From: Candidatus Saccharimonadota bacterium
Lineage (GTDB): Bacteria; Patescibacteriota; Microgenomatia; UBA1406; GWC2-37-13
Direction: 5' to 3'
NCBI GenBank assembly: GCA_016700135.1
Contig: CP065004.1
Coordinates: forward strand, 1,050,001 to 1,082,000
DNA: 32,000 nucleotides
Positions 2,795 through 25,848 of this stretch are shown one piece after another. A program made the translations under genes and the position numbers. The notes beneath the pieces were generated by a model, which made no database searches, was not told where the DNA came from, and was given only the letters and a program-made list of their open reading frames with translations. Position 1 is the first letter of the stretch; each line of letters begins with the position of its first letter.

Positions 2795-3392
2795 ACGGTT
2801 TATACTGAACGCGAATTTTTTGCCTATTACATTGTTTCTTGTGATGGATGTTGTTCTGCTGGGTTTTATCATATATCTGGGGCTCAATGCCTGGAACTTG
2901 TACAATGAGTTGGAGCTGAAAAAATCCGATCTAGAAGCAACAAAGCAAACGGCGAATTTGATAAAAAATAACAAAGCACTTCTTGAGGAGAATATTGGCA
3001 CATACAACGAGATATTGAATGAACTAATCCCTGATGAAGAGTCATACTTTAAAGTCATTGCGGCTTTTGAGAGGCTCGGAGCCGAAACCGGCGTAAACAT
3101 CCAGTCTTACAGCATCAACCTTGATGACACGACAGAAGAAAAGTTGTCTCTTGAACTGACGGTAAGCGGGACACGGGAAAGTGTCGAGCAAATGTTTAAG
3201 GACTACAACTTTGTGAGCGGAAGACTGATCACAAACGAAGAAATGATGGTAACTTTTGAGGACGGAGCTTCCACTACCTTTACCGTTAATCTCATCCACA
3301 GGCCGTTCGTCTCAAGTGATTCTCAAACCACGGAAACAATCACCCAACAGGATGTGGATTTTCTTGAAGAAATAAGATCAATCGTGAAATAA
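2769..3392 (+). CDS. pilO: PilO-like bitopic pilus assembly protein
   Basis: One TM helix (FLPITLFLVMDVVLLGFIIYLGL) is followed by a predicted coiled coil (ELELKKSDLEATKQTANLIKNNKALLEEN). ATG at 2769 is preferred over the TTG at 2745 used by the ORF track. Confidence 0.45.
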   Translation: MQIQLDQIKRFILNANFLPITLFLVMDVVLLGFIIYLGLNAWNLYNELELKKSDLEATKQTANLIKNNKALLEENIGTYNEILNELIPDEESYFKVIAAFERLGAETGVNIQSYSINLDDTTEEKLSLELTVSGTRESVEQMFKDYNFVSGRLITNEEMMVTFEDGASTTFTVNLIHRPFVSSDSQTTETITQQDVDFLEEIRSIVK

Positions 3393-10856: not shown

Positions 10857-11488
10857 ATCAGATCGATAAGTTCTTTGAAATGTTTAATGGTATGGGTCGG
10901 CTTGTGACGGGAGAACATGTTATGAGGATAATAAAGTTCATGAATATCAGGATAGTACCAAATTCCCGTGACATGTGCGGCATGACCGGCCAGAATATCC
11001 ACTTCATTGTCCCCTATCATGATCGTTTCCTCAGGTTTAGAATCCAGTCGCTCCATCGCAAGCAGAAGCGGATCGGGATCAGGTTTGTTTCTCTCAGTAT
11101 CTTCCCATGAGAGAGTCGTATCAAAAAGTGTCTCACAGTTCAGAAGTGTAAGTACTCTATCGAGTGTCGGTCTCAAGGTAGATGTTACGATTGCCGTTTT
11201 TATCCCCCGGGATTTTAATATCTGCATCAGATCCAGGAATCCTTCATGAAGCTGAATTTCCTTTTGCAGCATGTCAAAATTTGCATATAGATCATACTTG
11301 AATACTTCTACGTCAGGGATTTTGAGTTCCGGTTTTGCATCCCACCTGTGGAATGCTTTATCAATGATGTCCCTATCAGACATTGGGATTCCTAGTGCGT
11401 CAAACGTTTTTCGAAAACTTTTAAGCCATACGGGAAGCGAATTTACGACACAGCCGTCGAAGTCAAAAAGTATGGTGCGGTACTTCAT
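10853..11488 (-). CDS. HAD-superfamily hydrolase (phosphatase, subfamily IA-like)
   Basis: Motif I ILFDFDGCVVNS, motif II IVTST, and a motif III/IV region with K...MIGDNEVDILAG. Confidence 0.85.
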   Translation of the reverse strand: MKYRTILFDFDGCVVNSLPVWLKSFRKTFDALGIPMSDRDIIDKAFHRWDAKPELKIPDVEVFKYDLYANFDMLQKEIQLHEGFLDLMQILKSRGIKTAIVTSTLRPTLDRVLTLLNCETLFDTTLSWEDTERNKPDPDPLLLAMERLDSKPEETIMIGDNEVDILAGHAAHVTGIWYYPDIHELYYPHNMFSRHKPTHTIKHFKELIDLI

Positions 11489-13545: not shown

Positions 13546-14592
13546 TTAGAATTGTTCCAAAACTCTGATGTCGCCGTCATACAGCAGTCTCATATTGCTC
13601 AGTCCGATACCGGGCCGCATCATCATGACACGCTCTACACCAAAACCGAATGCCCAGCCGGTATACTCATCGGGATTGATACCGCCCGCTTTCAATACGT
13701 TCGGATGGACCATACCGGTTCCGCCCAGTTCAAGCCATCCCTGTTTGCAGAGACGGCATTTTTCACCGTTTACTTTACCCGTTCCCTGACAGATATCACA
13801 GGTGATATCTACTTCAAACGAAGGTTCGGTAAACTGGAAATGAAACGGACGAAGCCGTGTCTCGCGATCTTCTCCGAAAAACTGCTTGGCAAAATAATCA
13901 ATTGTTCCTTTCAAATGAGTGATATTTATTCTTTTATCGACACACAGACCCTCAAACTGATGAAACATCGGTACATGAGATGCATCCCAATTCGGGCGGT
14001 ACGTTTTGGCGATATTGATCATGCGAATCGGCGGTTTTCCGAGTCTCCGCATCTCTCTGTTTTGTCCGGATGATGTATGAGGTGTCAGTACCATCTTCCC
14101 GTGTTCTTTGTGCGGTTCGTAATCCATAAAAAAAGTCTCAAAATCGTCCCGAGCTGGATGATCTGACGGCATATTGAGAGCTTCAAATGAGAAGAATTCC
14201 CATTCTACTTCAGGGTATGACATGCGGATAAATCCGATTTTTTCGAAAATATGACTGATCTCTTCTATTGCATAGGTTACGAGATGAAGACTTCCCTGAG
14301 GATATTGTGTTGCAGGAAGTGTGGTATCTATCTTTTTTCTGCTGTTTTCGTTTTTCAACAGCTCAGTCCGCTTCGCTGATAATTCTTCCTGAATCTGCTG
14401 TTTTACGGTATTGATTTCCTGTCCGAATGTTTTCCTTTCTGAAGGATCGATATCTTTTATATTTTTCAGTTGCTGATTAATGATTCCGTTTCGTCCCAAA
14501 TACTCAGTTTCGAGAATTTCAAGCGTATCAAGTTCTTTTAAGGTAGATAATTGTTCCTTGAATTGGAGCAGAAGTTCTTTAGGAGATTTCAT
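13546..14592 (-). CDS. pheS: phenylalanine--tRNA ligase alpha subunit
   Basis: Class II motifs SDHPARDDFETFF, LRPFHFQFTEPSFEVD and GWAFGFGVERVMMM. Confidence 0.95.
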   Translation of the reverse strand: MKSPKELLLQFKEQLSTLKELDTLEILETEYLGRNGIINQQLKNIKDIDPSERKTFGQEINTVKQQIQEELSAKRTELLKNENSRKKIDTTLPATQYPQGSLHLVTYAIEEISHIFEKIGFIRMSYPEVEWEFFSFEALNMPSDHPARDDFETFFMDYEPHKEHGKMVLTPHTSSGQNREMRRLGKPPIRMINIAKTYRPNWDASHVPMFHQFEGLCVDKRINITHLKGTIDYFAKQFFGEDRETRLRPFHFQFTEPSFEVDITCDICQGTGKVNGEKCRLCKQGWLELGGTGMVHPNVLKAGGINPDEYTGWAFGFGVERVMMMRPGIGLSNMRLLYDGDIRVLEQF

Positions 14593-16013: not shown

Positions 16014-17285
16014 TCATCTATTGATAACAGCCTCTACAATGCGTTTCAGTTCACTATATGAGTTGCCTGAAGAAAAGACTGTTTGGGATTGATGATACGT
16101 CGGTTTTTGATCGGGTACAGTGATATCCGCTGACATCTTGATTTCCTCTGCAAATTTGACCGGGGAAGCGGTGGAAATAATGACGGGCGAGTCTAGCTTC
16201 AGGATATCAGCTGCCTTCCACGCGACTGCCGTATGCGGATCCAGAATGTAGCTATAAGTCTTATGTACTTTTTGCATCACTTGCTTCGTTTCTTCATCAG
16301 TCACTCGTACCGCAGTAAAAATTTCTTTAAAAAGTCCGTAATCACTTTTTACAGCATCCAGGATACGCTCAAAATTACTGGGATGTCCGATATCCATGGC
16401 CGTACTAAGAGTCTTGTGAGCGGGTTGCTTTTCATACATTCCCGTTTTGTAATATTTCACCACAGGATCATTGCTGTTGCAGGCAATGATGAGTTTTCTT
16501 ATCGGAATCCCGATCATTTTTGCATACAAGCCCGCTGTTACATTTCCCATATTTCCTGAGGGGACAACGAATGTAAGATTATCCTCCCGAAGTTTGGCCC
16601 AGGAAGAAGCATAATAAATCAACTGCGGAAGCAATCGTCCGATATTGATGGAGTTTGCCGAGGTAAGATTGTATTTTTTAAAATCAGAATCGGTAAAGGC
16701 CTGTTTTACCATCTTTTGACAGTCATCAAATGTTCCTTCGACTTCGATCGGATATATGTTTCTGCCGACATGTGTCAGCTGTTCTCTCTGAAGTTTGCTG
16801 ACTCTCCCTTTCGGAAAGAGAATTACGACTGATATATTGTCTTTTTCTGAAAATCCGTGTGCGACAGCACCGCCCGTATCACCGGATGTTGCCGTAATAA
16901 TCAATGTTCTTCGATTGTTCTTCCTGAGATAGTATTCCATAATTCCCGGCAGGACATGGGCTGCAACATCTTTAAAAGCCATTGTCGGCCCGTGAAACAA
17001 TTCCAGAATCCGTCGTTCTTGTACTGTCCGTATAGGAAGCGGAAATGACAGTCCTTCGGCAACGATCTTCATCAGTTCCGTTTGCGGAATGTCATCAATG
17101 AAAAGAGACAGTATTTTTGAGCCGATTTCTTCGATTGGTGCGCCCCGGAATGACGACAGCTCATCTCCGGAAAGGGAAGGAAACTTCTCAGGCACATACA
17201 ATCCTCCGTCCGGAGCAAGTCCCTGAAAAACCGCATCTTTAAATGTTACAACGTCTGCATGTGTGCGGGTACTTCGGAATTTCAT
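16014..17285 (-). CDS. thrC: threonine synthase
   Basis: 423 aa. The N-terminus FKDAVFQGLAPDGGLYVP and the PLP-lysine motif HGPTMAFKDVA are typical of ThrC. ATGA overlap with the upstream kinase gene. Confidence 0.9.
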   Translation of the reverse strand: MKFRSTRTHADVVTFKDAVFQGLAPDGGLYVPEKFPSLSGDELSSFRGAPIEEIGSKILSLFIDDIPQTELMKIVAEGLSFPLPIRTVQERRILELFHGPTMAFKDVAAHVLPGIMEYYLRKNNRRTLIITATSGDTGGAVAHGFSEKDNISVVILFPKGRVSKLQREQLTHVGRNIYPIEVEGTFDDCQKMVKQAFTDSDFKKYNLTSANSINIGRLLPQLIYYASSWAKLREDNLTFVVPSGNMGNVTAGLYAKMIGIPIRKLIIACNSNDPVVKYYKTGMYEKQPAHKTLSTAMDIGHPSNFERILDAVKSDYGLFKEIFTAVRVTDEETKQVMQKVHKTYSYILDPHTAVAWKAADILKLDSPVIISTASPVKFAEEIKMSADITVPDQKPTYHQSQTVFSSGNSYSELKRIVEAVINR

Positions 17286-17911
17286 ACTGCCTCGATATGT
17301 TCAATGAAATCTGAAGCCGTGAAGTCTTCCTGCCTGTGGATATCAAACGGGATGGTTATGTCAGCAATGTTCCCGTATTTTTTTGCCCGGAATGAGAGAA
17401 GATTCTGGTAACAACGCGCGAGAGCTTCTTCATTGGTTTCACCTTCCTTCGGCTTGTATGACTCTCCCCAGATAATCGGTTTGGGATTGCGTAAAAATTC
17501 CTGATAAATCTCCTGTTTTTTCTCTTCAGGTATGTCTAAATAGATAACAGAACTGATTTCTTTTAATCTTTTCAGAACACTACCCGTGGTGTATATTACG
17601 CTACCTGTAGTGTCTATAACTATTTTTTTCGGATTTCCGTTCATTGAAGTGATTTCGTCAAATATTTCCTCCATTACCTCGGTTTCAAAATCGAGGTATC
17701 GTTTACTTGTCTTCGGGTACTGAGGTTCATACGGATGTCCCATCCACTTTGCTACTTCATGGAGTCCCCGATATCCGTTTTTCCGCAGTTCAGGAGCAAG
17801 TCGCTTCTCAATCAGATCATCACATGTGATACGGGTGAAGCCGTGTTTTTGGAGCTCAAAAGCCCAGTATGTCTTGCCGGCACTTGACATGCCGACGAGT
17901 GAAATAATCAT
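17282..17911 (-). CDS. P-loop NTPase, shikimate-kinase/NMP-kinase-like small-molecule kinase of unknown substrate
   Basis: Walker A is at the extreme N-terminus (ISLVGMSSAGKT), followed by CDDLIEKRL and a VIDTTGSVIY segment laid out like the shikimate kinase family. It is translationally coupled to thrC. Confidence 0.65.
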   Translation of the reverse strand: MIISLVGMSSAGKTYWAFELQKHGFTRITCDDLIEKRLAPELRKNGYRGLHEVAKWMGHPYEPQYPKTSKRYLDFETEVMEEIFDEITSMNGNPKKIVIDTTGSVIYTTGSVLKRLKEISSVIYLDIPEEKKQEIYQEFLRNPKPIIWGESYKPKEGETNEEALARCYQNLLSFRAKKYGNIADITIPFDIHRQEDFTASDFIEHIEAV

Positions 17912-17929: not shown

Positions 17930-19666
17930 CTACTGTTTATCGCTGATTTGTTTGACAGCTGCTTTGGTGAAATCTTCAAGTTTCATTGTCTCCGTGTTGC
18001 CGTCTCTGGATCTTACATTCACTTCTCCCGCCTCGACCTCTTTATCTCCGATAACAAGCATGTACGGAATTTTGGCTTTTTGTGCCGTTCTGATTTTCTT
18101 CTGCATCGATTCGGATTTATCGTTGAGTTCTGATCGAATCGCTTTTTCAGTTAATTCATTCCTGACTTTTTCCGCGAACTCATTATGTCGGTCTGCAATC
18201 GGAATAATCTCCACCTGTACTGGTGCAAGCCAGAACGGAAATGCTCCGGCATAATGTTCGATCAGGATGGAAAGGAACCGTTCGATCGATCCCATGATTG
18301 CGGCATGGATCATGACAATGCGTTCTTCTTCTCCTTTTTCATTGACACATGTCAGATCAAACCGTTCGGGCATGTTCATATCAAGCTGAATTGTTGCAAC
18401 CTGCCATTCACGGCCGAGCGAATCTTTTGCCATAAAATCAAGTTTCGGACCGTAAAAAGCCGCTTCTCCTTCCGCTTCTTCAGCCTCCGCATGGTGTTCT
18501 TTGATAATTTCGCGAAGCATGTTCTCGGCTTCCTGCCACTTATTTTCATCTCCGAGATATTTTTCCGGCTCTTTCGGATCATGGAGAGACAATCTGATTT
18601 TCAGATTGAATCCGAACGTACTGTAGAATGTCTGCACAATGTCCCAGATTTTCAGAAACTCATCCTTCACCTGTGAGAACCTTGCAAAAACATGTGCATC
18701 GTCCTGACTGAAAGCACGAACCCGCGAGAGTCCGGAAAGTTCACCAGTTTGTTCATCGCGATAACAGGTTGTCGTATTGGCGTATCGCTGCGGCAGTTCA
18801 CGGAAACTCCATTTTTTGCGGGCATAGATCTGTGTATGATGCGGACAGTTCATCGGTTTCATGGCAAATTCGTGTCCTTCGCGTGTCGTAATTTTGAAAA
18901 GTTCATCAGAAAACTTTGCCCAGTGCCCTGATGTTTCATACAGTTCCTTTTTTGTAATATGCGGTATCTCAACCCGTGAATATCCTTTTTCCCGTCTCAG
19001 CTGCCAGACATATTCATCCAGCAGATTCCTGACAAGGGTTCCTTTTGGTGTCCAGAGCGGTAAGCCCGGTCCCACCAGTTCCGAAAAAACAAACAGATCA
19101 AGCTCTTTTCCCAATTTTTTGTGATCTCTTTTTTTTGCTTCATCACGTTGTGTGATAAAGGCCTCGAGTTCTTCTTTTGTCGGGAAAGCCGTACCGTAAA
19201 TGCGGGTAAGCATGTTGTTCTTTTCGTTGCCTCGCCAGTAAGCTCCTGCGAGTGACATCAGTTTGAAGTGTCTCAGTTCTTCCTTCGGGTTTTCAATATG
19301 GCCTCCGCGGCAGAGGTCAATGAATTCTCCGGATTTATAAAGCGTGATTTCTTCTTTTTTTTCTTCGAGTTCTCTGATAATTTCCAGTTTGTATTCGTTT
19401 CCATTGAATTGATTCCGCGCTTTTTCTGCATCGACGGGGATTTTTTCAAAGCTTTCCCATTTCTTGACCAGTTCTCTCATTTTCTGTTCGATTTTACCCA
19501 GATCCTGCTCTGATATCGGTTCCTTAAATTCAAAGTCATAGTAAAAACCATCTTCTATCGGTGGTCCGATAGTCGGCTTTGTATCAGGATAAAGTTCAAG
19601 AACTGCCGCTGCCAATAGATGTGCGGCTGAGTGTCGGAGTGCATCAAGAGATTGCTGGTCTTTCAT
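17930..19666 (-). CDS. thrS: threonine--tRNA ligase (no N-terminal TGS domain)
   Basis: Contains the editing-domain motif RHSAAHLLAAAV, class II motif 2 CYRDEQTGELSGLSRVRAFSQDDAHVF and a C-terminal anticodon-binding domain. ATG 19666 is preferred over the TTG at 19690. Confidence 0.95.
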   Translation of the reverse strand: MKDQQSLDALRHSAAHLLAAAVLELYPDTKPTIGPPIEDGFYYDFEFKEPISEQDLGKIEQKMRELVKKWESFEKIPVDAEKARNQFNGNEYKLEIIRELEEKKEEITLYKSGEFIDLCRGGHIENPKEELRHFKLMSLAGAYWRGNEKNNMLTRIYGTAFPTKEELEAFITQRDEAKKRDHKKLGKELDLFVFSELVGPGLPLWTPKGTLVRNLLDEYVWQLRREKGYSRVEIPHITKKELYETSGHWAKFSDELFKITTREGHEFAMKPMNCPHHTQIYARKKWSFRELPQRYANTTTCYRDEQTGELSGLSRVRAFSQDDAHVFARFSQVKDEFLKIWDIVQTFYSTFGFNLKIRLSLHDPKEPEKYLGDENKWQEAENMLREIIKEHHAEAEEAEGEAAFYGPKLDFMAKDSLGREWQVATIQLDMNMPERFDLTCVNEKGEEERIVMIHAAIMGSIERFLSILIEHYAGAFPFWLAPVQVEIIPIADRHNEFAEKVRNELTEKAIRSELNDKSESMQKKIRTAQKAKIPYMLVIGDKEVEAGEVNVRSRDGNTETMKLEDFTKAAVKQISDKQ

Positions 19667-19715
19667 AAATTGAGTTTTCTTGCTTTGCAAGCTAAATGGT
19701 AATAATACGGTATAT

Positions 19716-19740
19716 AAAAAAAATCCCTCCGTTTGGAGGG
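19716..19740 (-). terminator. intrinsic terminator CCCTCC-AAAC-GGAGGG followed by A+T8
   Basis: The minus strand reads gaagCCCTCCaaacGGAGGGaTTTTTTTTata. It lies downstream of a strong promoter and 50 nt upstream of the thrS ATG. Confidence 0.75.
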
Positions 19741-19767
19741 CTTCAAAAAATCACGTGACTACCCTCC
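19735..19767 (-). promoter_or_regulatory. candidate antiterminator pairing (upstream GGAGGG 19767-19762 with CCCTCC 19740-19735)
   Basis: The 10-nt AAACGGAGGG occurs twice (19771-19762 and 19734-19725). Both copies can pair with the single CCCTCC, so the two structures are mutually exclusive. Confidence 0.55.
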
Positions 19768-19769
19768 GT

Positions 19770-19820
19770 TTAACGGATAATGTCGGTAGCGGTTGTGATT
19801 CGGTCCGTCGTTGTGATCAT
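19770..19820 (-). CDS. Thr/Ile-rich leader peptide MITTTDRITTATDIIR (thr-operon-type attenuation leader)
   Basis: ATG lies 7 nt after the -10 hexamer (leaderless). The 16 codons include 6 Thr and 4 Ile. The TAA stop lies 2 nt before the antiterminator arm. Confidence 0.55.
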   Translation of the reverse strand: MITTTDRITTATDIIR

Positions 19821-19827
19821 TAGTACA

Positions 19828-19855
19828 ATTGTAACACTCTGCCATGATATGTCAA
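19828..19855 (-). promoter_or_regulatory. near-consensus sigma70 promoter TTGACA-N16-(TGt)TACAAT
   Basis: Read on the minus strand 6 nt after the pilin stop: caaagTTGACAtatcatggcagagtgtTACAATtgtactaATG. Confidence 0.65.
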
Positions 19856-19861
19856 CTTTGC

Positions 19862-20380
19862 TTAGGAACAGCTTGGATGGTAGGTTGCAAGTTGTGTCAC
19901 GATGTCATCACCAGTGTTGAATAAACCGTCAGGACCGACGCTTCTTATAGAGTCCCGCCGGCAAGGGTTGGTGGGATATTCTCCGTCGTTTTCATCGACA
20001 ACATACGGACTTCCCCAGGGATCACGGGTATATTCGGTGATATCACCGTATCCTGCTGCGGAAACGGTATTCATGACATTTATCCAACGCTGCATACAGA
20101 TATGTGAAGTGGGGACATTGCGAAGATCGCCGGTATTGCATGCATTACAAAAACTGCAGTAATTTCCGGTGATTTGTCCGAACAACTGACCAGATTTTAC
20201 CCGCGCTGTTTCTACGCCTTTTTTAATATCTTCCAAGTCAGTCTCAGCGCTTGAAACACGGGTGTCATCTATGGTACTTCTGAATGACGCGGCACCGACT
20301 GTGGCAATTACGCCGATTATGCCCAACACAATAACAAGTTCAAGAAGTGTAAATGCTTTGTTCATGTCCGGGAATGTCAT
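19862..20380 (-). CDS. type IV pilin (candidate major pilin), Cys-rich globular domain
   Basis: MTFPDMNKA|FTLLELVIVLGIIGVIATVGAASF is a prepilin signal. The C-terminal domain has 7 Cys. The gene has its own promoter and terminator. Confidence 0.8.
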   Translation of the reverse strand: MTFPDMNKAFTLLELVIVLGIIGVIATVGAASFRSTIDDTRVSSAETDLEDIKKGVETARVKSGQLFGQITGNYCSFCNACNTGDLRNVPTSHICMQRWINVMNTVSAAGYGDITEYTRDPWGSPYVVDENDGEYPTNPCRRDSIRSVGPDGLFNTGDDIVTQLATYHPSCS

Positions 20381-20422: not shown

Positions 20423-21418
20423 TCATGCTACTCCAACTGCATCTTTTACTTCTCTGAGTGTTTGTTCGGCAATAAGGTTTGCCTTTTCTGCACCTTTTTT
20501 GCGGAGTTCCGAAATACGATCCATATCGTGCTGCAGTTCTTCCTTTCGCTTTTTCATATCGGCAAAATACTCAAGGAAATAATTAAGAAGAATTTTTTTG
20601 ATTTCGACATCACCGATTGTACCATTCTTATACCGCTCTTTCATATCTTCGAGTTTATTCCTCTCATACTCCATAAGCCCGAGATATGTAAATGCAACGT
20701 TTTTGTCCGGATCACCGGGATCAGTGGGATGAATACGGGCAGGATCGGTCGTGACTGACATAATTTGCTTTTTCACAATATCTTCAGAAGCAAAAATCGG
20801 AATATCATTTCCGAGTGATTTACTCATTTTGCGTTGGCCGTCAATACCGGGAACACGGGCAACATCCTTTTTGACAAATAGCTCAGGAACTTTCAGCACG
20901 TCTCCGTATCTGTTGTTGAATGTCCGCGCAATATCCCGGCAGATCTCAACATGCTGTGTCTGATCTTCACCCACAGGGATAACATCGGGATTAAATGCGA
21001 GAATATCAGCAGCCATAAGCACCGGATATGAAAACAGCCCGAAATTTATGGCATCCTGAGACACATCATTCTGCAGCTTATCTTTGTAGGCGTGCATCCT
21101 TTTGAGCTCCGCAACCGTCACTGCGTTATTCAGTATCGTCTGCAAATACGGAATGCTGTGAATATCGCTTTGGATATAAAATGTCGTCTTCTCAGGATCA
21201 AGACCGAAAGCCAGATATTCGATGAAAATATTCATCGTATTTTTATGTACTTCCTCAGGGTCAAAAACATTATTCAGTGCATGAAGATTCGCTATAAAGT
21301 AAAAACAATCACCTTTCTCCTGAAATTCAATGTGAGGTTTGACTGCTCCAAGATAATTTCCGAGATGAAGTCCTTTGGCTGAACTCGGCGTTATTCCAGA
21401 TAGTATTCGTTTTTGCAT
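20423..21418 (-). CDS. trpS: tryptophan--tRNA ligase
   Basis: Class I motifs GLHLGNYLGA (HIGH region) and KMSKS are present. Start at MQKRILSGITPS (21418). The ORF-track extension was rejected. Confidence 0.95.
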   Translation of the reverse strand: MQKRILSGITPSSAKGLHLGNYLGAVKPHIEFQEKGDCFYFIANLHALNNVFDPEEVHKNTMNIFIEYLAFGLDPEKTTFYIQSDIHSIPYLQTILNNAVTVAELKRMHAYKDKLQNDVSQDAINFGLFSYPVLMAADILAFNPDVIPVGEDQTQHVEICRDIARTFNNRYGDVLKVPELFVKKDVARVPGIDGQRKMSKSLGNDIPIFASEDIVKKQIMSVTTDPARIHPTDPGDPDKNVAFTYLGLMEYERNKLEDMKERYKNGTIGDVEIKKILLNYFLEYFADMKKRKEELQHDMDRISELRKKGAEKANLIAEQTLREVKDAVGVA

Positions 21419-21430
21419 ATTACTCTCACC

Positions 21431-21439
21431 ATTATAGCA
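21431..21439 (-). promoter_or_regulatory. extended -10 promoter TGCTATAAT for trpS
   Basis: The minus strand reads cgaTGCTATAATggtgagagtaatATG. Confidence 0.45.
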
Positions 21440-21478
21440 TCGTTTTTCCGTATAATGAAAACATACGAGGTCATTTTT

Positions 21479-23476
21479 ATGGCGAAGAAACCAATTAATT
21501 TTCATTCTTTACTACTGCCGGGAATACTGCTTCTTCTTACTCTTGCGGCCGGCGGAGTGATTTTCTTTGCGCTGAAACAAAGTGATACGTCAGAGAAGCA
21601 CGAAACAATCCAGGATATCCCCACAGAGGCTTCTCAATCGACAAATATTTTGGTTTATGATGTGACAGCCCCTGATACGGCTTTTACGGGAACGGCAAAG
21701 GAAAAAAATACTGAAGCGAGCGTACCTCTTAAGTTCAGAACAATTCGGTCTACTGATTATGACTATGACGACGAACGGGAACAGTACAAGACAACCGTTG
21801 TGCGACTGGCCACACGGACTGATATGACATTAGCGGTAACTATTCCGGGCAACCCGACCAGTGCCGTGCTGAGAAGTCCGACAGCTGATCTCCCGGTGAC
21901 TGTCTCAGGCGGGGTGGTGACGTTTGACTTACCGGCGATACCCGGAAATTATTACTTAAAAACGAATCTGCCGGATGAAGGCGAGTACATCCAAACAATG
22001 GTATTCTGGGTAGATAAACTTGATGACATCACCGTTACCAAGCCGACACAGGCAACTGAAGTATTGCCGGGGCAACCTCTTCAGGCCGTGATCGACGGTG
22101 CTCAACCGGGAACGATGATTTATCTTGCGCCTGGTATCCACTCGGCATCAGGAATTCGAATCGATTCAAAGAATGATATCTCACTTATTTTTCATCCGAA
22201 TGCCGTTTTAAATCAGACTTCAACCGACGAGAAATTTATCGATATAAACAGGTCCTCAAACGTGACAATAAAGGGGCCGGGAGAAATCCGGGCAGCCAAA
22301 GGTAACGGTCAAACAGTCTTATATGCACATGACTCCAACAACCTGATTCTTAACGACTTTTTCATCTATAAAATCCATCATCGTGACGGCTGGACTCTTC
22401 ATGTGTACCGTGATGACACCGTGCAGGTCAACCAGGTGAGAATTATTTCCGGAAATGACGGAACAGATCCTGACAGCTCGAAGAACGTGACTTACAACAA
22501 TATTTACATCGAAGCTCAGGATGATGCTGTAGCGATTAAGACACGGGGAGGAGAAGCAAATACCATTACGCTTAACAACGTTTTAGCAAAATCCGCCGCA
22601 TCGTCTTTGAAAATCGGAGAGGCAACGGTTGATTCTTTGACGACCAATATTACTTTCAAAAACAGTACGGTATTTGACAGTGATCGCGCTCTGGTGGTGA
22701 TGCCACGCGGCAACGGACGGATCGGGAATGTGCTCTATCAAAATATCCGGGTACTTTCGATGAGATCAAATAAGGAAGGGAGAACGATTCGTGTACTGAA
22801 ATCCGCAACGGATACAAGCGGCAGTATATTTGACGGGTCCTCCATTGTGTTTGATAATGTGTATGCAGAGTTTATCAAACCTGCTGAAATCAGACAGGCT
22901 GTGACGATCAAACATTCCAGGTTTGTTTCAAATGGTGGGATGAATATGTTTCCGGATACCTGTCCAACATTGATCAACCTGACTCTCGAAGGAGGGGCGA
23001 CGACAACCTGTACTATCCAAACGGAACCGACGTATACTCCTACTCCGACTGTGGGAGGTACCACACCTACTCCTACTTCTCCTGCTGCTACGGCAACAGT
23101 CCCACCGGGGACAACACCGACTCCTACTGCCGCAGCATCAACTCCGACACCGACAACGACAGCCCCGACCCCTACTCATACGGCTACGCCCACCTTGACT
23201 CCTACTCCTACATTGACGCCGACTCCCACCGCTACCCCGACTCCTACATCCACACCAACTCCGACCAGTACGCCGACTCCAACATCTACTCCGACGCCTA
23301 CATTTACCCCGACTCCCACGTTTACTCTTACTCCTACTCCGACTCAAACACCGGTGCCGACTGCAACATTTACACCTGTACCTGAGCTGAAAGTAAACGG
23401 TCAGCCGCCGGGATTCAATCCTCTCTACTTTGTAGGTATTCCTCTCATGATAATTATTGCGGCGCTGCTAATGTAG
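21479..23476 (+). CDS. secreted right-handed beta-helix protein, GH28 (polygalacturonase)-like, with Pro/Thr linker and C-terminal TM anchor
   Basis: N-terminal signal/TM MAKKPINFHSLLLPGILLLLTLAAGGVIFFAL. SGNDGTDPDSS and QDDAVAIKT resemble the GH28 NTDG and GDDC(I/V)AIK motifs. A ~120-aa (T/P)-rich linker follows, and the protein ends in the hydrophobic YFVGIPLMIIIAALLM. GAGG lies 8 nt upstream of ATG 21479. Confidence 0.7.
   Translation: MAKKPINFHSLLLPGILLLLTLAAGGVIFFALKQSDTSEKHETIQDIPTEASQSTNILVYDVTAPDTAFTGTAKEKNTEASVPLKFRTIRSTDYDYDDEREQYKTTVVRLATRTDMTLAVTIPGNPTSAVLRSPTADLPVTVSGGVVTFDLPAIPGNYYLKTNLPDEGEYIQTMVFWVDKLDDITVTKPTQATEVLPGQPLQAVIDGAQPGTMIYLAPGIHSASGIRIDSKNDISLIFHPNAVLNQTSTDEKFIDINRSSNVTIKGPGEIRAAKGNGQTVLYAHDSNNLILNDFFIYKIHHRDGWTLHVYRDDTVQVNQVRIISGNDGTDPDSSKNVTYNNIYIEAQDDAVAIKTRGGEANTITLNNVLAKSAASSLKIGEATVDSLTTNITFKNSTVFDSDRALVVMPRGNGRIGNVLYQNIRVLSMRSNKEGRTIRVLKSATDTSGSIFDGSSIVFDNVYAEFIKPAEIRQAVTIKHSRFVSNGGMNMFPDTCPTLINLTLEGGATTTCTIQTEPTYTPTPTVGGTTPTPTSPAATATVPPGTTPTPTAAASTPTPTTTAPTPTHTATPTLTPTPTLTPTPTATPTPTSTPTPTSTPTPTSTPTPTFTPTPTFTLTPTPTQTPVPTATFTPVPELKVNGQPPGFNPLYFVGIPLMIIIAALLM
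23021..23383 (+). repeat. low-complexity Pro/Thr-coding repeat (ACNCCN-type periodicity) inside the GH28-like gene
   Basis: The translation is TPTPTxTPTPT repeated. The antisense frames give an artefactual Arg/Ser/Cys ORF. Confidence 0.85.
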
Positions 23477-23700: not shown

Positions 23701-23711
23701 ACGGGAAAGTG

Positions 23712-23785
23712 TGGGCGTATCAGGACTTGAACCTGAGACCTTTACAATGTCAATGTAACGCTCTAGCCAACTGAGCTATACGCCC
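23712..23785 (-). tRNA. tRNA-Val (anticodon GAC)
   Basis: Hand-folded cloverleaf: acceptor GGGCGTA/TACGCCC, D-arm GCTC-AGTTGGCTA-GAGC, anticodon arm TTACA-TTGACAT-TGTAA, variable AGGTC, T-arm TCAGG-TTCAAGT-CCTGA, discriminator A. CCA is not encoded. Confidence 0.9.
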
Positions 23786-25428: not shown

Positions 25429-25848
25429 ATGAACATCATCAAACAACAAAGTAACTCATACATTCTGAGATTTGACCGCGGTGAAGAGTTTATTTCAGCA
25501 ATACAGGACTTCTGCACGAAAAACAATATTAAGTCCGGATATTTTCACGGTATCGGGGCCTGTCATAAACTGGAGCTGTCTTGGTACAACCTTCAGACAA
25601 AAAAGTATGAAACAAAGGTTATTGAGGAAAATCTTGAAATTACATCTTTGACCGGGAATATTGCATTGATTGACGGCTCGGTTTTTGCACATACTCACGG
25701 TGTTTTCGGGGGCAGGCAACTTCAGGCAATAGCGGGGCATGTCAAAAGTATGGAAATATCTGCAACCTGTGAGATCAAACTTGATATTTTTGAAGGGACA
25801 ATCGAACGCATATTTGATGAAGCGACAGGTCTCAAGCTGATGAAGTGA
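25429..25848 (+). CDS. PPC (DUF296) domain protein
   Basis: 139 aa. FISAIQDFCTKNNIKSGYFHGIGA...LTGNIAL.DG....H.H is typical of the PPC/DUF296 fold. Confidence 0.75.
   Translation: MNIIKQQSNSYILRFDRGEEFISAIQDFCTKNNIKSGYFHGIGACHKLELSWYNLQTKKYETKVIEENLEITSLTGNIALIDGSVFAHTHGVFGGRQLQAIAGHVKSMEISATCEIKLDIFEGTIERIFDEATGLKLMK

Follow-up and report, generated by a model that had tools for sequence, protein, structure and literature searches.

A putative leaderless Thr-codon attenuator in front of thrS in Patescibacteria

In Escherichia coli, the leader of the threonine operon (thrL, Rfam RF00506) combines a short open reading frame (ORF) containing threonine (and isoleucine) codons, mutually exclusive RNA pairings designated 1:2, 2:3, and 3:4, and a terminator located before the genes. 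When charged tRNA-Thr is low, RNA polymerase reads through this terminator. The classical precedent for leader-peptide attenuation of an aminoacyl-tRNA synthetase (aaRS) operon is E. coli pheST with its pheM leader peptide, where the codons are those for Phe and the mRNA leader has a ribosome-binding site. Here, we describe a leader element with the architecture of the threonine leader on the minus strand of a 32-kb stretch of contig CP065004.1 (the window; coordinates are positions in it), where it precedes thrS, a P-loop kinase gene, and thrC, all on the same strand. Judging from its comparison with relatives, the element is probably a transcription attenuator of the leader-peptide type, in which a translating ribosome gauges the supply of charged tRNA-Thr and thereby controls thrS-kinase-thrC; expression of the operon is most likely raised when charged tRNA-Thr is low.

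As in the E. coli thr operon, the genes under control would include threonine synthase and, in the clade of the window, a probable homoserine kinase, and read-through would occur at low charged tRNA-Thr. The two systems differ in the first gene (thrA in E. coli, thrS here), in the length of the leader ORF (21 codons versus 13–16), in the bacterial group (Proteobacteria versus Patescibacteria), and in that the element described here is apparently leaderless.

Leaderless leader peptides located in front of aaRS genes were defined by RNA-seq in Streptomyces lividans TK24 (thrL-thrS, leuL2-leuS, trpL2-trpS, and alaL-alaS; PMC8079986). There too, a leaderless mini-ORF with cognate codons directly precedes the aaRS gene, including thrS, is followed by hairpins, and has been read as ribosome-mediated attenuation. 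S. lividans thrL (MKRVRPFLETTPGFVPAR), however, contains two Thr codons only, lacks a clear U-rich terminator, and is documented by RNA-seq from one organism, whereas the window element, described here at the level of sequence, combines runs of Thr codons with a canonical terminator and a defined antiterminator and is conserved across lineages. No sequence similarity between the two is expected or seen. In mycobacteria, leaderless poly-Cys attenuator ORFs were demonstrated experimentally (Canestrari et al., bioRxiv 10.1101/834739). These are likewise leaderless ORFs with runs of codons for a single amino acid, in which ribosome stalling remodels the downstream RNA and switches the operon on; the window element is distinguished by its canonical intrinsic terminator and by its presumed sensing of Thr. 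In Bacilli, His leaders have been predicted before hisS paralogs (PMC2965389). The T-box at thrS in Bacillus and the ThrRS translational operator in E. coli act on the same gene and follow the same physiological logic, in that low charging of tRNA-Thr or a shortage of ThrRS leads to increased ThrRS. In contrast to these, the window element contains a conserved, translated-looking ORF; its length falls far below that of a T-box, and anticodon-like operator loops are missing from it. No paper in the literature library searched connects the candidate phyla radiation (CPR), to which Patescibacteria correspond, with leader peptides or attenuators; the mechanism is classical, and it appears to be undescribed in this bacterial group.

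The leader element and its close homologs

The sequence elements listed in the initial annotation of the locus, which had proposed a threonine-operon-style attenuator, are all present (Table 1). The promoter matches the consensus at 11 of 12 positions and, in addition, has the TG of an extended −10 element. The annotation had written it as TTGACA-N16-TGtTACAAT; the elements are right, while the TGt in this notation is not additional to the 16-nt spacer but forms its 3′ end. The −10 box is separated from the ATG of the leader ORF by 7 nt (tgtacta), and no Shine-Dalgarno motif is present for the mini-ORF; transcription is predicted to start at or next to the AUG, giving a leaderless mRNA. The ORF, MITTTDRITTATDIIR, contains 6 Thr and 4 Ile among its 16 codons. 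Only the dinucleotide AC stands between its TAA and the first GGAGGG, which thus starts at a distance of 5 nt from the T of TAA. The 10-mer AAACGGAGGG is present twice, at 19771–19762 and 19734–19725, and the stop codon lies within a small hairpin, CCGU-UAA-ACGG. The terminator, CCCUCC-AAAC-GGAGGG-A-U8, was also recovered by a scan for hairpins followed by T-runs. Promoter and terminator delimit a unit of ~105 nt, and no other arrangement of a promoter, an ATG within 5–9 nt, a short ORF, and a terminator is found in the window. The U-tract ends 49 nt before the thrS ATG. Since no promoter-like site was found in this interval at the scan threshold, expression of thrS should depend on read-through.

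The element was compared with 172 thrS loci from related Patescibacteria (the window's own leader is referred to as W, loci of relatives as L plus a number). Scans of genomes and metagenomes with ThrRS yielded 160 loci, all with 60–71% ThrRS identity except L001 (98%); closer relatives (74–91%) were obtained through protein hits. A homologous leader was found in 11 sequences, W and 10 relatives, at ThrRS identities of 69–98%. The −35 hexamer is TTGACA in eight of the nine homologs with upstream sequence and TTGACT in L167; L081 begins at a contig end, and its promoter region lies outside this comparison. In W and these nine homologs, a spacer of 16–17 nt leads to a −10 box of the form (TG)TAnAAT, and an ATG follows 6–8 nt later. 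The ORF is open in frame for 13–16 codons in all 11 sequences, despite indels and near-total divergence of the peptide (compare MSFGIFCKLVQTTISR of L168 with MITTTDRITTATDIIR of W). In every one of them, Thr codons (ACU/ACC) are located 2–8 codons before the stop, the stop lies 2–5 nt before an invariant GGAGGG (5–8 nt when the distance is taken from the start of the stop codon), and a terminator of the form CCCUCC-variable loop-GGAGGG-U6–8 follows. The mini-ORF and its Thr codons are thus kept in the 10 homologous leaders. The first Thr run of W (codons 3–5) is not conserved and is probably dispensable for the switch.

The nearest relatives without kinase-thrC, L171 and L172 (70% and 69% ThrRS identity), have no leader. 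Judged by these genomes, the leader co-occurs within Roizmanbacteria with the kinase-thrC insertion. In L171 and L172 (1811–3001), thrS lies 32 nt after a trpS-like gene, which has two tRNA genes upstream, and infC directly follows thrS. A separate observation concerns one relative, L163/L164, where an insertion of ~200 nt (2800–3000) separates the attenuator terminator from thrS. The insertion contains an imperfect inverted repeat (25 nt, 76% complementary, arms 61 nt apart) and could represent a mobile or structured element of small size.

Leaderless translation of the mini-ORF can be viewed against the rest of the window. A Shine-Dalgarno-like motif is present at only 2 of the 27 ORF starts. 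Extended −10 elements (TGnTAnnAT) end 6 nt before an ATG at 11488 (−), at 14592 (−), which is the start of pheS, and at 25429 (+); the pilin gene start at 20380 (−) has a TATAGT −10 box without TG extension, likewise 6 nt before the ATG. These features suggest that leaderless mRNAs are widespread and routine in this Roizmanbacteria genome, which makes leaderless translation of the mini-ORF plausible and less exceptional. The initial annotation had considered leaderless attenuation of an aaRS gene unusual. Given the S. lividans and pheST precedents and the seemingly routine leaderless mRNAs here, that was overstated.

Alternative pairings and the proposed switch

The predicted minimum free energy (MFE) of the 115-nt leader is −29.0 kcal/mol, compared to −21.1 kcal/mol in dinucleotide shuffles (z = −2.5). 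The MFE fold of W consists of the terminator and a long three-part 1:2 helix, in which the second half of the ORF pairs with the segment that follows the stop codon (GAAUCAC/GUGAUUU, GCUACC/GGUAGU, and CCGU/ACGG). All three pairings are predicted in each of the 11 sequences, with energies of −17 to −22 kcal/mol for 1:2, −12 to −18 kcal/mol for 2:3, and −11 to −13 kcal/mol for 3:4; the terminator of W is put at −10 to −12 kcal/mol. As modeled, the element thus has the four regions of a classical attenuator, which goes beyond two competing arms. The initial annotation had placed the whole switch in the competing arms; the 2:3 and 3:4 pairings that it proposed are predicted here as well, while the large 1:2 helix had been overlooked.

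Covariation was evaluated in a hand-built, N-padded structural alignment; a plain MAFFT alignment mis-registered CCCUCC and the L168 clade, and RNAalifold applied to it recovered, apart from a portion of the terminator, only the middle helix and the apical one. With 1:2 and 3:4 taken together, 95.6% of cells in the structural alignment are paired, versus 39–53% when the partners are slid by 1–3 columns. Double changes were found in 18 cells, versus 6.5 ± 1.8 in shuffles, and none of 500 shuffles reached a covariation score as high as that observed. In the outer 1:2 stem, six of the seven pairs show compensatory changes (AUCAC/GUGAU, UUUUGC/GCAAAA, AUCUC/GAGAU). The middle 1:2 stem is invariant in the W family and, for this reason, uninformative there. 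A covariance model seeded with seven close W-clade leaders matched non-seed leaders at exactly the coordinates found independently: L081 (E = 7e-8), L169 (5e-5), and L168 (7e-5).

The spacing of the elements was examined with respect to the ribosome, which covers ~12 nt 3′ of the A site. In the 17 leaders tabulated, including the distant ones described below, region 2 begins 2–10 nt after the first nucleotide of the stop codon, so a ribosome at the stop would mask region 2 and favor the terminator. The distance from the last clustered Thr codon to region 2 is 11–21 nt in 16 of the 17 leaders, including all those of the W family, and a ribosome stalled at that codon would break 1:2 and leave region 2 free. 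In the remaining leader, L120, the last Thr codon, a lone late one after the main run, is 8 nt from region 2. The conserved second Thr cluster (codons 9–12) is likely the sensor in W.

Taken together, the data point to the following sequence of events. Transcription would start from or next to the leader AUG, and a ribosome would translate the nascent leaderless RNA. With ample Thr-tRNA, the ribosome would reach UAA and hide GGAGGG, and CCCUCC with the second GGAGGG and U8 would terminate transcription 49 nt before thrS. With scarce Thr-tRNA, the ribosome would stall at codons 9–12 and melt 1:2, leaving GGAGGG exposed 20 nt downstream; once made, CCCUCC would pair with it (the 2:3 antiterminator) before region 4 appears, the terminator would be blocked, and RNA polymerase would continue into thrS, the putative homoserine kinase gene, and thrC. 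In the absence of translation, region 2 would be sequestered in the 1:2 helix, making termination the default.

The W subclade also contains a U4–U6 run (GUGAUUUUUU, W 19748–19742) directly 3′ of the 1:2 helix, which is missing in the L168–L170 clade. The run resembles a hairpin-dependent pause signal and could synchronize RNA polymerase with the ribosome.

Distant poly-Thr leaders and the weighing of alternatives

We screened the regions upstream of thrS for short ORFs with at least three identical consecutive residues followed by a hairpin and a T-tract. The screen yielded the Thr-run leaders of L027 (identical to L104), L065, L088, L100, L103, L120, and L157, to which L154 was added later. 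Poly-Thr leaders thus precede thrS in eight more distant CPR lineages, with ORFs of 11–24 codons and up to 7 Thr (Table 1). The Thr runs (5–7 codons) use mixed synonymous codons and are always in frame. In the seven analogs whose terminator is downstream of the ORF, a G-rich region 2 immediately follows the stop and is complementary both to the Thr-codon region and to the 5′ arm of the locus's own terminator. The region 2/3 arms differ between loci: GCGGGG/CCCCGC, GGCGGGG/CCUCCGCC, GGGGAGG/CCUCUCU-type, GGGUGGUC/GACCACCC, and GGCGGUGUAG/CUACCCCGCC. Complementarity is thus kept with other arm sequences, which supports the 2:3 pairing. A −10 box is located 6–8 nt before the ATG in four of the eight leaders (L088, L100, L103, and L120) and a possible GATAAT 12 nt upstream in L157, while no clear promoter was seen for the leaders of L027 and L154. 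The covariance model also matched distant non-seed leaders at the independently found coordinates (L088, E = 0.0015; L065, 0.0028; L157, 0.02), with weak matches to L027 and L100. These matches suggest that some distant leaders may be homologous to the W family rather than convergent. The distant loci have no kinase or thrC gene after thrS (L081 is counted in the close family), and thrS is, on this comparison, the constant target of the leaders. With the 10 homologs and these eight lineages, the central claim of the initial annotation, a Thr leader peptide with competing antiterminator and terminator before thrS-kinase-thrC, is supported.

Two of the distant loci deviate in their organization. 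In L065 (1–161), the leader ORF MITLFSTTTTTFS begins 5 nt (UUUUU) after the CCA end of tRNA-Val(GAC), with no promoter between; tRNA and leader may share a transcript, and processing of the tRNA would then leave an almost leaderless mRNA. In L154 (600–705), a 24-codon ORF (MKLYRIATTTCTTTTPRLERVFTL, 7 Thr) extends across a terminator of its own, CCCGC-CUCGA-GCGGG-U5. This terminator starts directly behind the Thr run, and 29 nt separate its end from thrS; here, a stalled ribosome could block the terminator directly, without a separate antiterminator. A further candidate, MIKVVRKTTATTIIIPS..., found in L117/L118 448 nt upstream, was rejected for want of a proper terminator or promoter context.

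The specificity for Thr was assessed in short ORFs upstream of thrS. Among 146 distinct loci, seven have at least five Thr within six residues when the thrS strand is read, and the opposite strand gave none; every other amino acid stayed at two loci or fewer in this strict screen. A relaxed screen (three identical residues in a six-residue window) was non-discriminating (Leu, 12 loci; Ser, 10; Thr, 11). A structure-first screen for a terminator, a complementary upstream arm, and an adjacent ORF stop, which ignored amino acids, returned almost only Thr-rich ORFs; its non-Thr candidates (L014, L054, L094, L135, and L144) lack real U-tracts or promoters and were discarded. Ile was not clearly enriched among the short ORFs, and stalling at the last two Ile codons of W would place the ribosome over GGAGGG. 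The regulatory input from Ile codons that the annotation had envisaged is therefore not supported.

Several observations weigh against attenuation by a translating ribosome. The start of transcription, translation of the ORF, stalling, and Thr-dependent read-through are all deduced from sequence. L168 and L169 have just two Thr codons, and ACUACC also pairs with GGUAGU, so that conservation of the Thr codons could be partly structural. The GGAGGG/CCCUCC antiterminator and terminator cores never vary in the close family and hence show no covariation; the covariation that the annotation had named as a check on these arms is thus missing among close homologs, and the pairing is kept with other sequences in the distant analogs. 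The structural alignment was fitted by hand to the structure, and a single split, between the L168–L170 clade and the W clade, accounts for most of the double changes in the outer stem. When the ribosome is masked at the Thr codons, the equilibrium fold of the full W transcript is still the terminator; only L165 and L081 switch. Read-through in W must therefore rely on the order of co-transcriptional folding, i.e., be kinetic, as in classical attenuators, and on these models the thermodynamic argument alone is insufficient for the switch. The antiterminator pairing of L027 is weak, and such a leader is present in only ~10% of the sampled CPR thrS loci.

The invariance of ACUACC/GGUAGU and GGAGGG/CCCUCC as RNA elements, together with the two homologs that have just two Thr codons, would also fit a switch made of RNA only, in which the hairpins answer to a protein (e.g., ThrRS), a tRNA, or a ligand, the ORF is incidental, and ACUACC is kept for its pairing with GGUAGU. 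E. coli ThrRS is known to regulate its own synthesis through mRNA structure, which counts in favor of such a switch. We nevertheless consider it very unlikely. An incidental ORF would not be expected to keep its ATG 6–8 nt after a −10 box in the W family and in half of the distant analogs, its frame open over indels and almost complete divergence of the peptide (13–16 codons in the W family, 11–24 in distant leaders), or its stop at 2–5 nt from the arm in the W family; nor does it account for the in-frame distant runs of 5–7 Thr encoded by mixed codons, or for Thr being the sole enriched residue, on the sense strand only. The folds of the 11 leaders share no conserved loop resembling an anticodon (a 7-nt loop with xGU), on which ground mimicry of the ThrRS operator was rejected. 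The element is also too short for a T-box. Searches of 19600–19900 with RF00230 stayed negative both at gathering and with the cut-off relaxed to E ≤ 10, and 33 related thrS loci gave no match either. More generally, Rfam at gathering thresholds matched neither the element in the window nor those 33 loci, where only tRNAs were found, so no known riboswitch class, the identification of which would have spoken against the annotation, was recognized. Matches below gathering were dismissed: Thr_leader (RF00506) scored 13.3 bits in W (E = 5.5, gathering 55), with no match in 14 leader-bearing loci, and Phe_leader (RF01859) reached 17 bits against a gathering score of 55; both are noise. The element, while it would work in the manner of the E. 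coli thr leader, is thus no member of RF00506.

Also very unlikely, in our judgment, is a small transcription unit of its own, producing a short RNA or micropeptide, or a mere pilin terminator, with thrS served by a separate downstream promoter. Promoter and terminator do bracket ~105 nt, RNAs derived from attenuators can act in trans (rnTrpL, PMC6614838), and there is room for a promoter in the 100–200 nt between terminator and thrS of L163, L162, and L027, the last of which has TGCTACAAT there; in the window, TATTAT occurs 35 nt before the thrS ATG. Yet the terminator lies downstream of the leader promoter and so is not merely that of the pilin gene, the short interval before thrS in the window is devoid of promoter-like sites at the scan threshold, and the element is always directly upstream of thrS on the same strand, despite differing upstream genes (pilin, trpS-like, tRNA), with Thr codons that fit the function of the downstream gene. 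Lenient scans find promoters and terminators in about equal numbers in shuffled and real sequence, so a chance juxtaposition of promoter-like site, short ORF, and terminator had to be weighed as well. It is extremely improbable and effectively refuted by the comparative data: the arrangement is conserved down to 69% ThrRS identity and recurs in distant lineages, and it is accompanied by covariation, significant covariance-model matches, and the fold z-score of −2.5. Ribosome-mediated attenuation thus remains the best explanation of the element.

Genomic context and significance

The order of genes on the minus strand, as assigned with Pfam and NCBIfam, is Trp/Tyr-type aaRS, pilin-like, leader, thrS, kinase, thrC, infC, rplT, and pheS (Table 1). 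The pheS gene of the E. coli pheST precedent stands in a thrS-infC-rpmI-rplT-pheST neighborhood, as in this window. The ThrRS encoded in the window is identical to an annotated protein of a Candidatus Roizmanbacteria metagenome-assembled genome (CPR/Patescibacteria). It lacks the N-terminal TGS domain, with only the tRNA_SAD, class II core, and anticodon-binding domains detected; its CPR relatives are of the same length. The stop codon of the kinase gene overlaps the thrC start, and the two genes always occur together after thrS (L001, L081, and L161–L170) or are both missing (L171 and L172). The kinase matches NF040667 ("homoserine kinase") weakly and partially (38.6 bits, cut-off 197); the family is that of the shikimate-kinase-like homoserine kinase described from Desulfovibrio (DvMF_0971, PMC5764234). 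A sequence search of the PDB with the kinase returned nothing useful. We regard the 209-aa kinase as a candidate non-orthologous homoserine kinase. The sole RNA gene detected in the window is tRNA-Val(GAC) at 23711–23785 (−).

Table 1. Features of the leader element and adjacent genes in the window, and leader peptides of related loci
Feature	Position	Strand	Basis or remark
−35 hexamer TTGACA	19855–19850	−	sequence reading and promoter scan
Extended −10 TGtTACAAT	19836–19828	−	hexamer TACAAT at 19833–19828; TGT is the spacer end
Leader ORF MITTTDRITTATDIIR + TAA	19820–19770	−	ATG at 19820, TAA at 19772–19770, 16 codons
First Thr run, codons 3–5 (ACA ACG ACG)	19814–19806	−	missing in L161, L162, L165, L168–L170
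Thr codons 9, 10, 12 (ACA ACC GCU ACC), likely main regulatory codons	19796–19785	−	ACU/ACC equivalents in every homolog
Region 1, 5′ arms of 1:2 helix (GAAUCAC, GCUACC, CCGU), within ORF	19801–19773	−	folding and covariation
Region 2 ACGGAGGGUAGUCACGUGAUUU	19769–19748	−	partner is region 1, or region 3 through GGAGGG (19767–19762)
Region 3 CCCUCC, terminator 5′ arm and antiterminator 3′ arm	19740–19735	−	invariant in 11 sequences
Region 4 GGAGGG (19730–19725), A, U8 (19723–19716)	19730–19716	−	intrinsic terminator with region 3
thrS, threonine–tRNA ligase, 578 aa, first regulated gene (predicted)	17930–19666	−	TIGR00418, 698 bits
P-loop kinase, 209 aa, candidate shikimate-kinase-like homoserine kinase	17282–17911	−	NCBIfam NF040667
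thrC, threonine synthase	16014–17285	−	TIGR00260, 259.8 bits
Type IV pilin-like protein	19862–20380	−	Pfam/NCBIfam
Trp/Tyr-type aaRS	20423–21505	−	Pfam/NCBIfam
L001 leader peptide MITTTYRITTATDIIR			close homolog
L161 leader peptide MINTMNQITTTTTIIR			close homolog
L162 leader peptide MITNRITTATTIIR			close homolog
L163 leader peptide MISKMNRITTTTIIIR			close homolog
L165 leader peptide MFLTSKIITATICIR			close homolog
L167 leader peptide MIDTIITATRTTD			close homolog
L081 leader peptide MIYIQESLTTTRKSR			close homolog
L168 leader peptide MSFGIFCKLVQTTISR			close homolog
L169 leader peptide MRFGVFCKLSPTTINR			close homolog
L170 leader peptide MRSPSFCQLAHTTITR			close homolog
L027 leader xRPAFVQATTTTTIIPG			distant lineage
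L065 leader MITLFSTTTTTFS			distant lineage
L088 leader MFNRFTTITTTNA			distant lineage
L100 leader MHRTTTTTTTS			distant lineage
L103 leader MGLVSFTCTTTTTTRSPG			distant lineage
L120 leader MARLVSTTTTTTRTP			distant lineage
L157 leader MKQTFVTTTYAL			distant lineage
L154 leader MKLYRIATTTCTTTTPRLERVFTL			distant lineage

On balance, we lean towards a broader interpretation, in which the leaders belong to a family of leaderless Thr-codon attenuators that is old, spread across Patescibacteria, and hitherto undescribed. Such a family would make ThrRS responsive to tRNA-Thr charging and, in one clade, would also control a salvage module of P-loop homoserine kinase and threonine synthase. The understanding of attenuation itself is unchanged by the finding. 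In practical terms, it yields a regulatory part of an uncultured lineage that is compact and testable, gives a means of annotating, in CPR genomes, "intergenic" segments of ~100 nt as well as spurious short ORFs, and provides a functional context tying an uncharacterized P-loop kinase to threonine synthesis. CPR bacteria have tiny genomes and few recognizable regulators, and obtain amino acids from hosts or the environment. If the conserved Thr-sensing attenuator is real, they would gauge amino-acid supply directly through the ribosome, using leaderless translation, and with this family the radiation, largely uncultured and poor in regulators, would have its first defined cis-regulator for amino-acid sensing.

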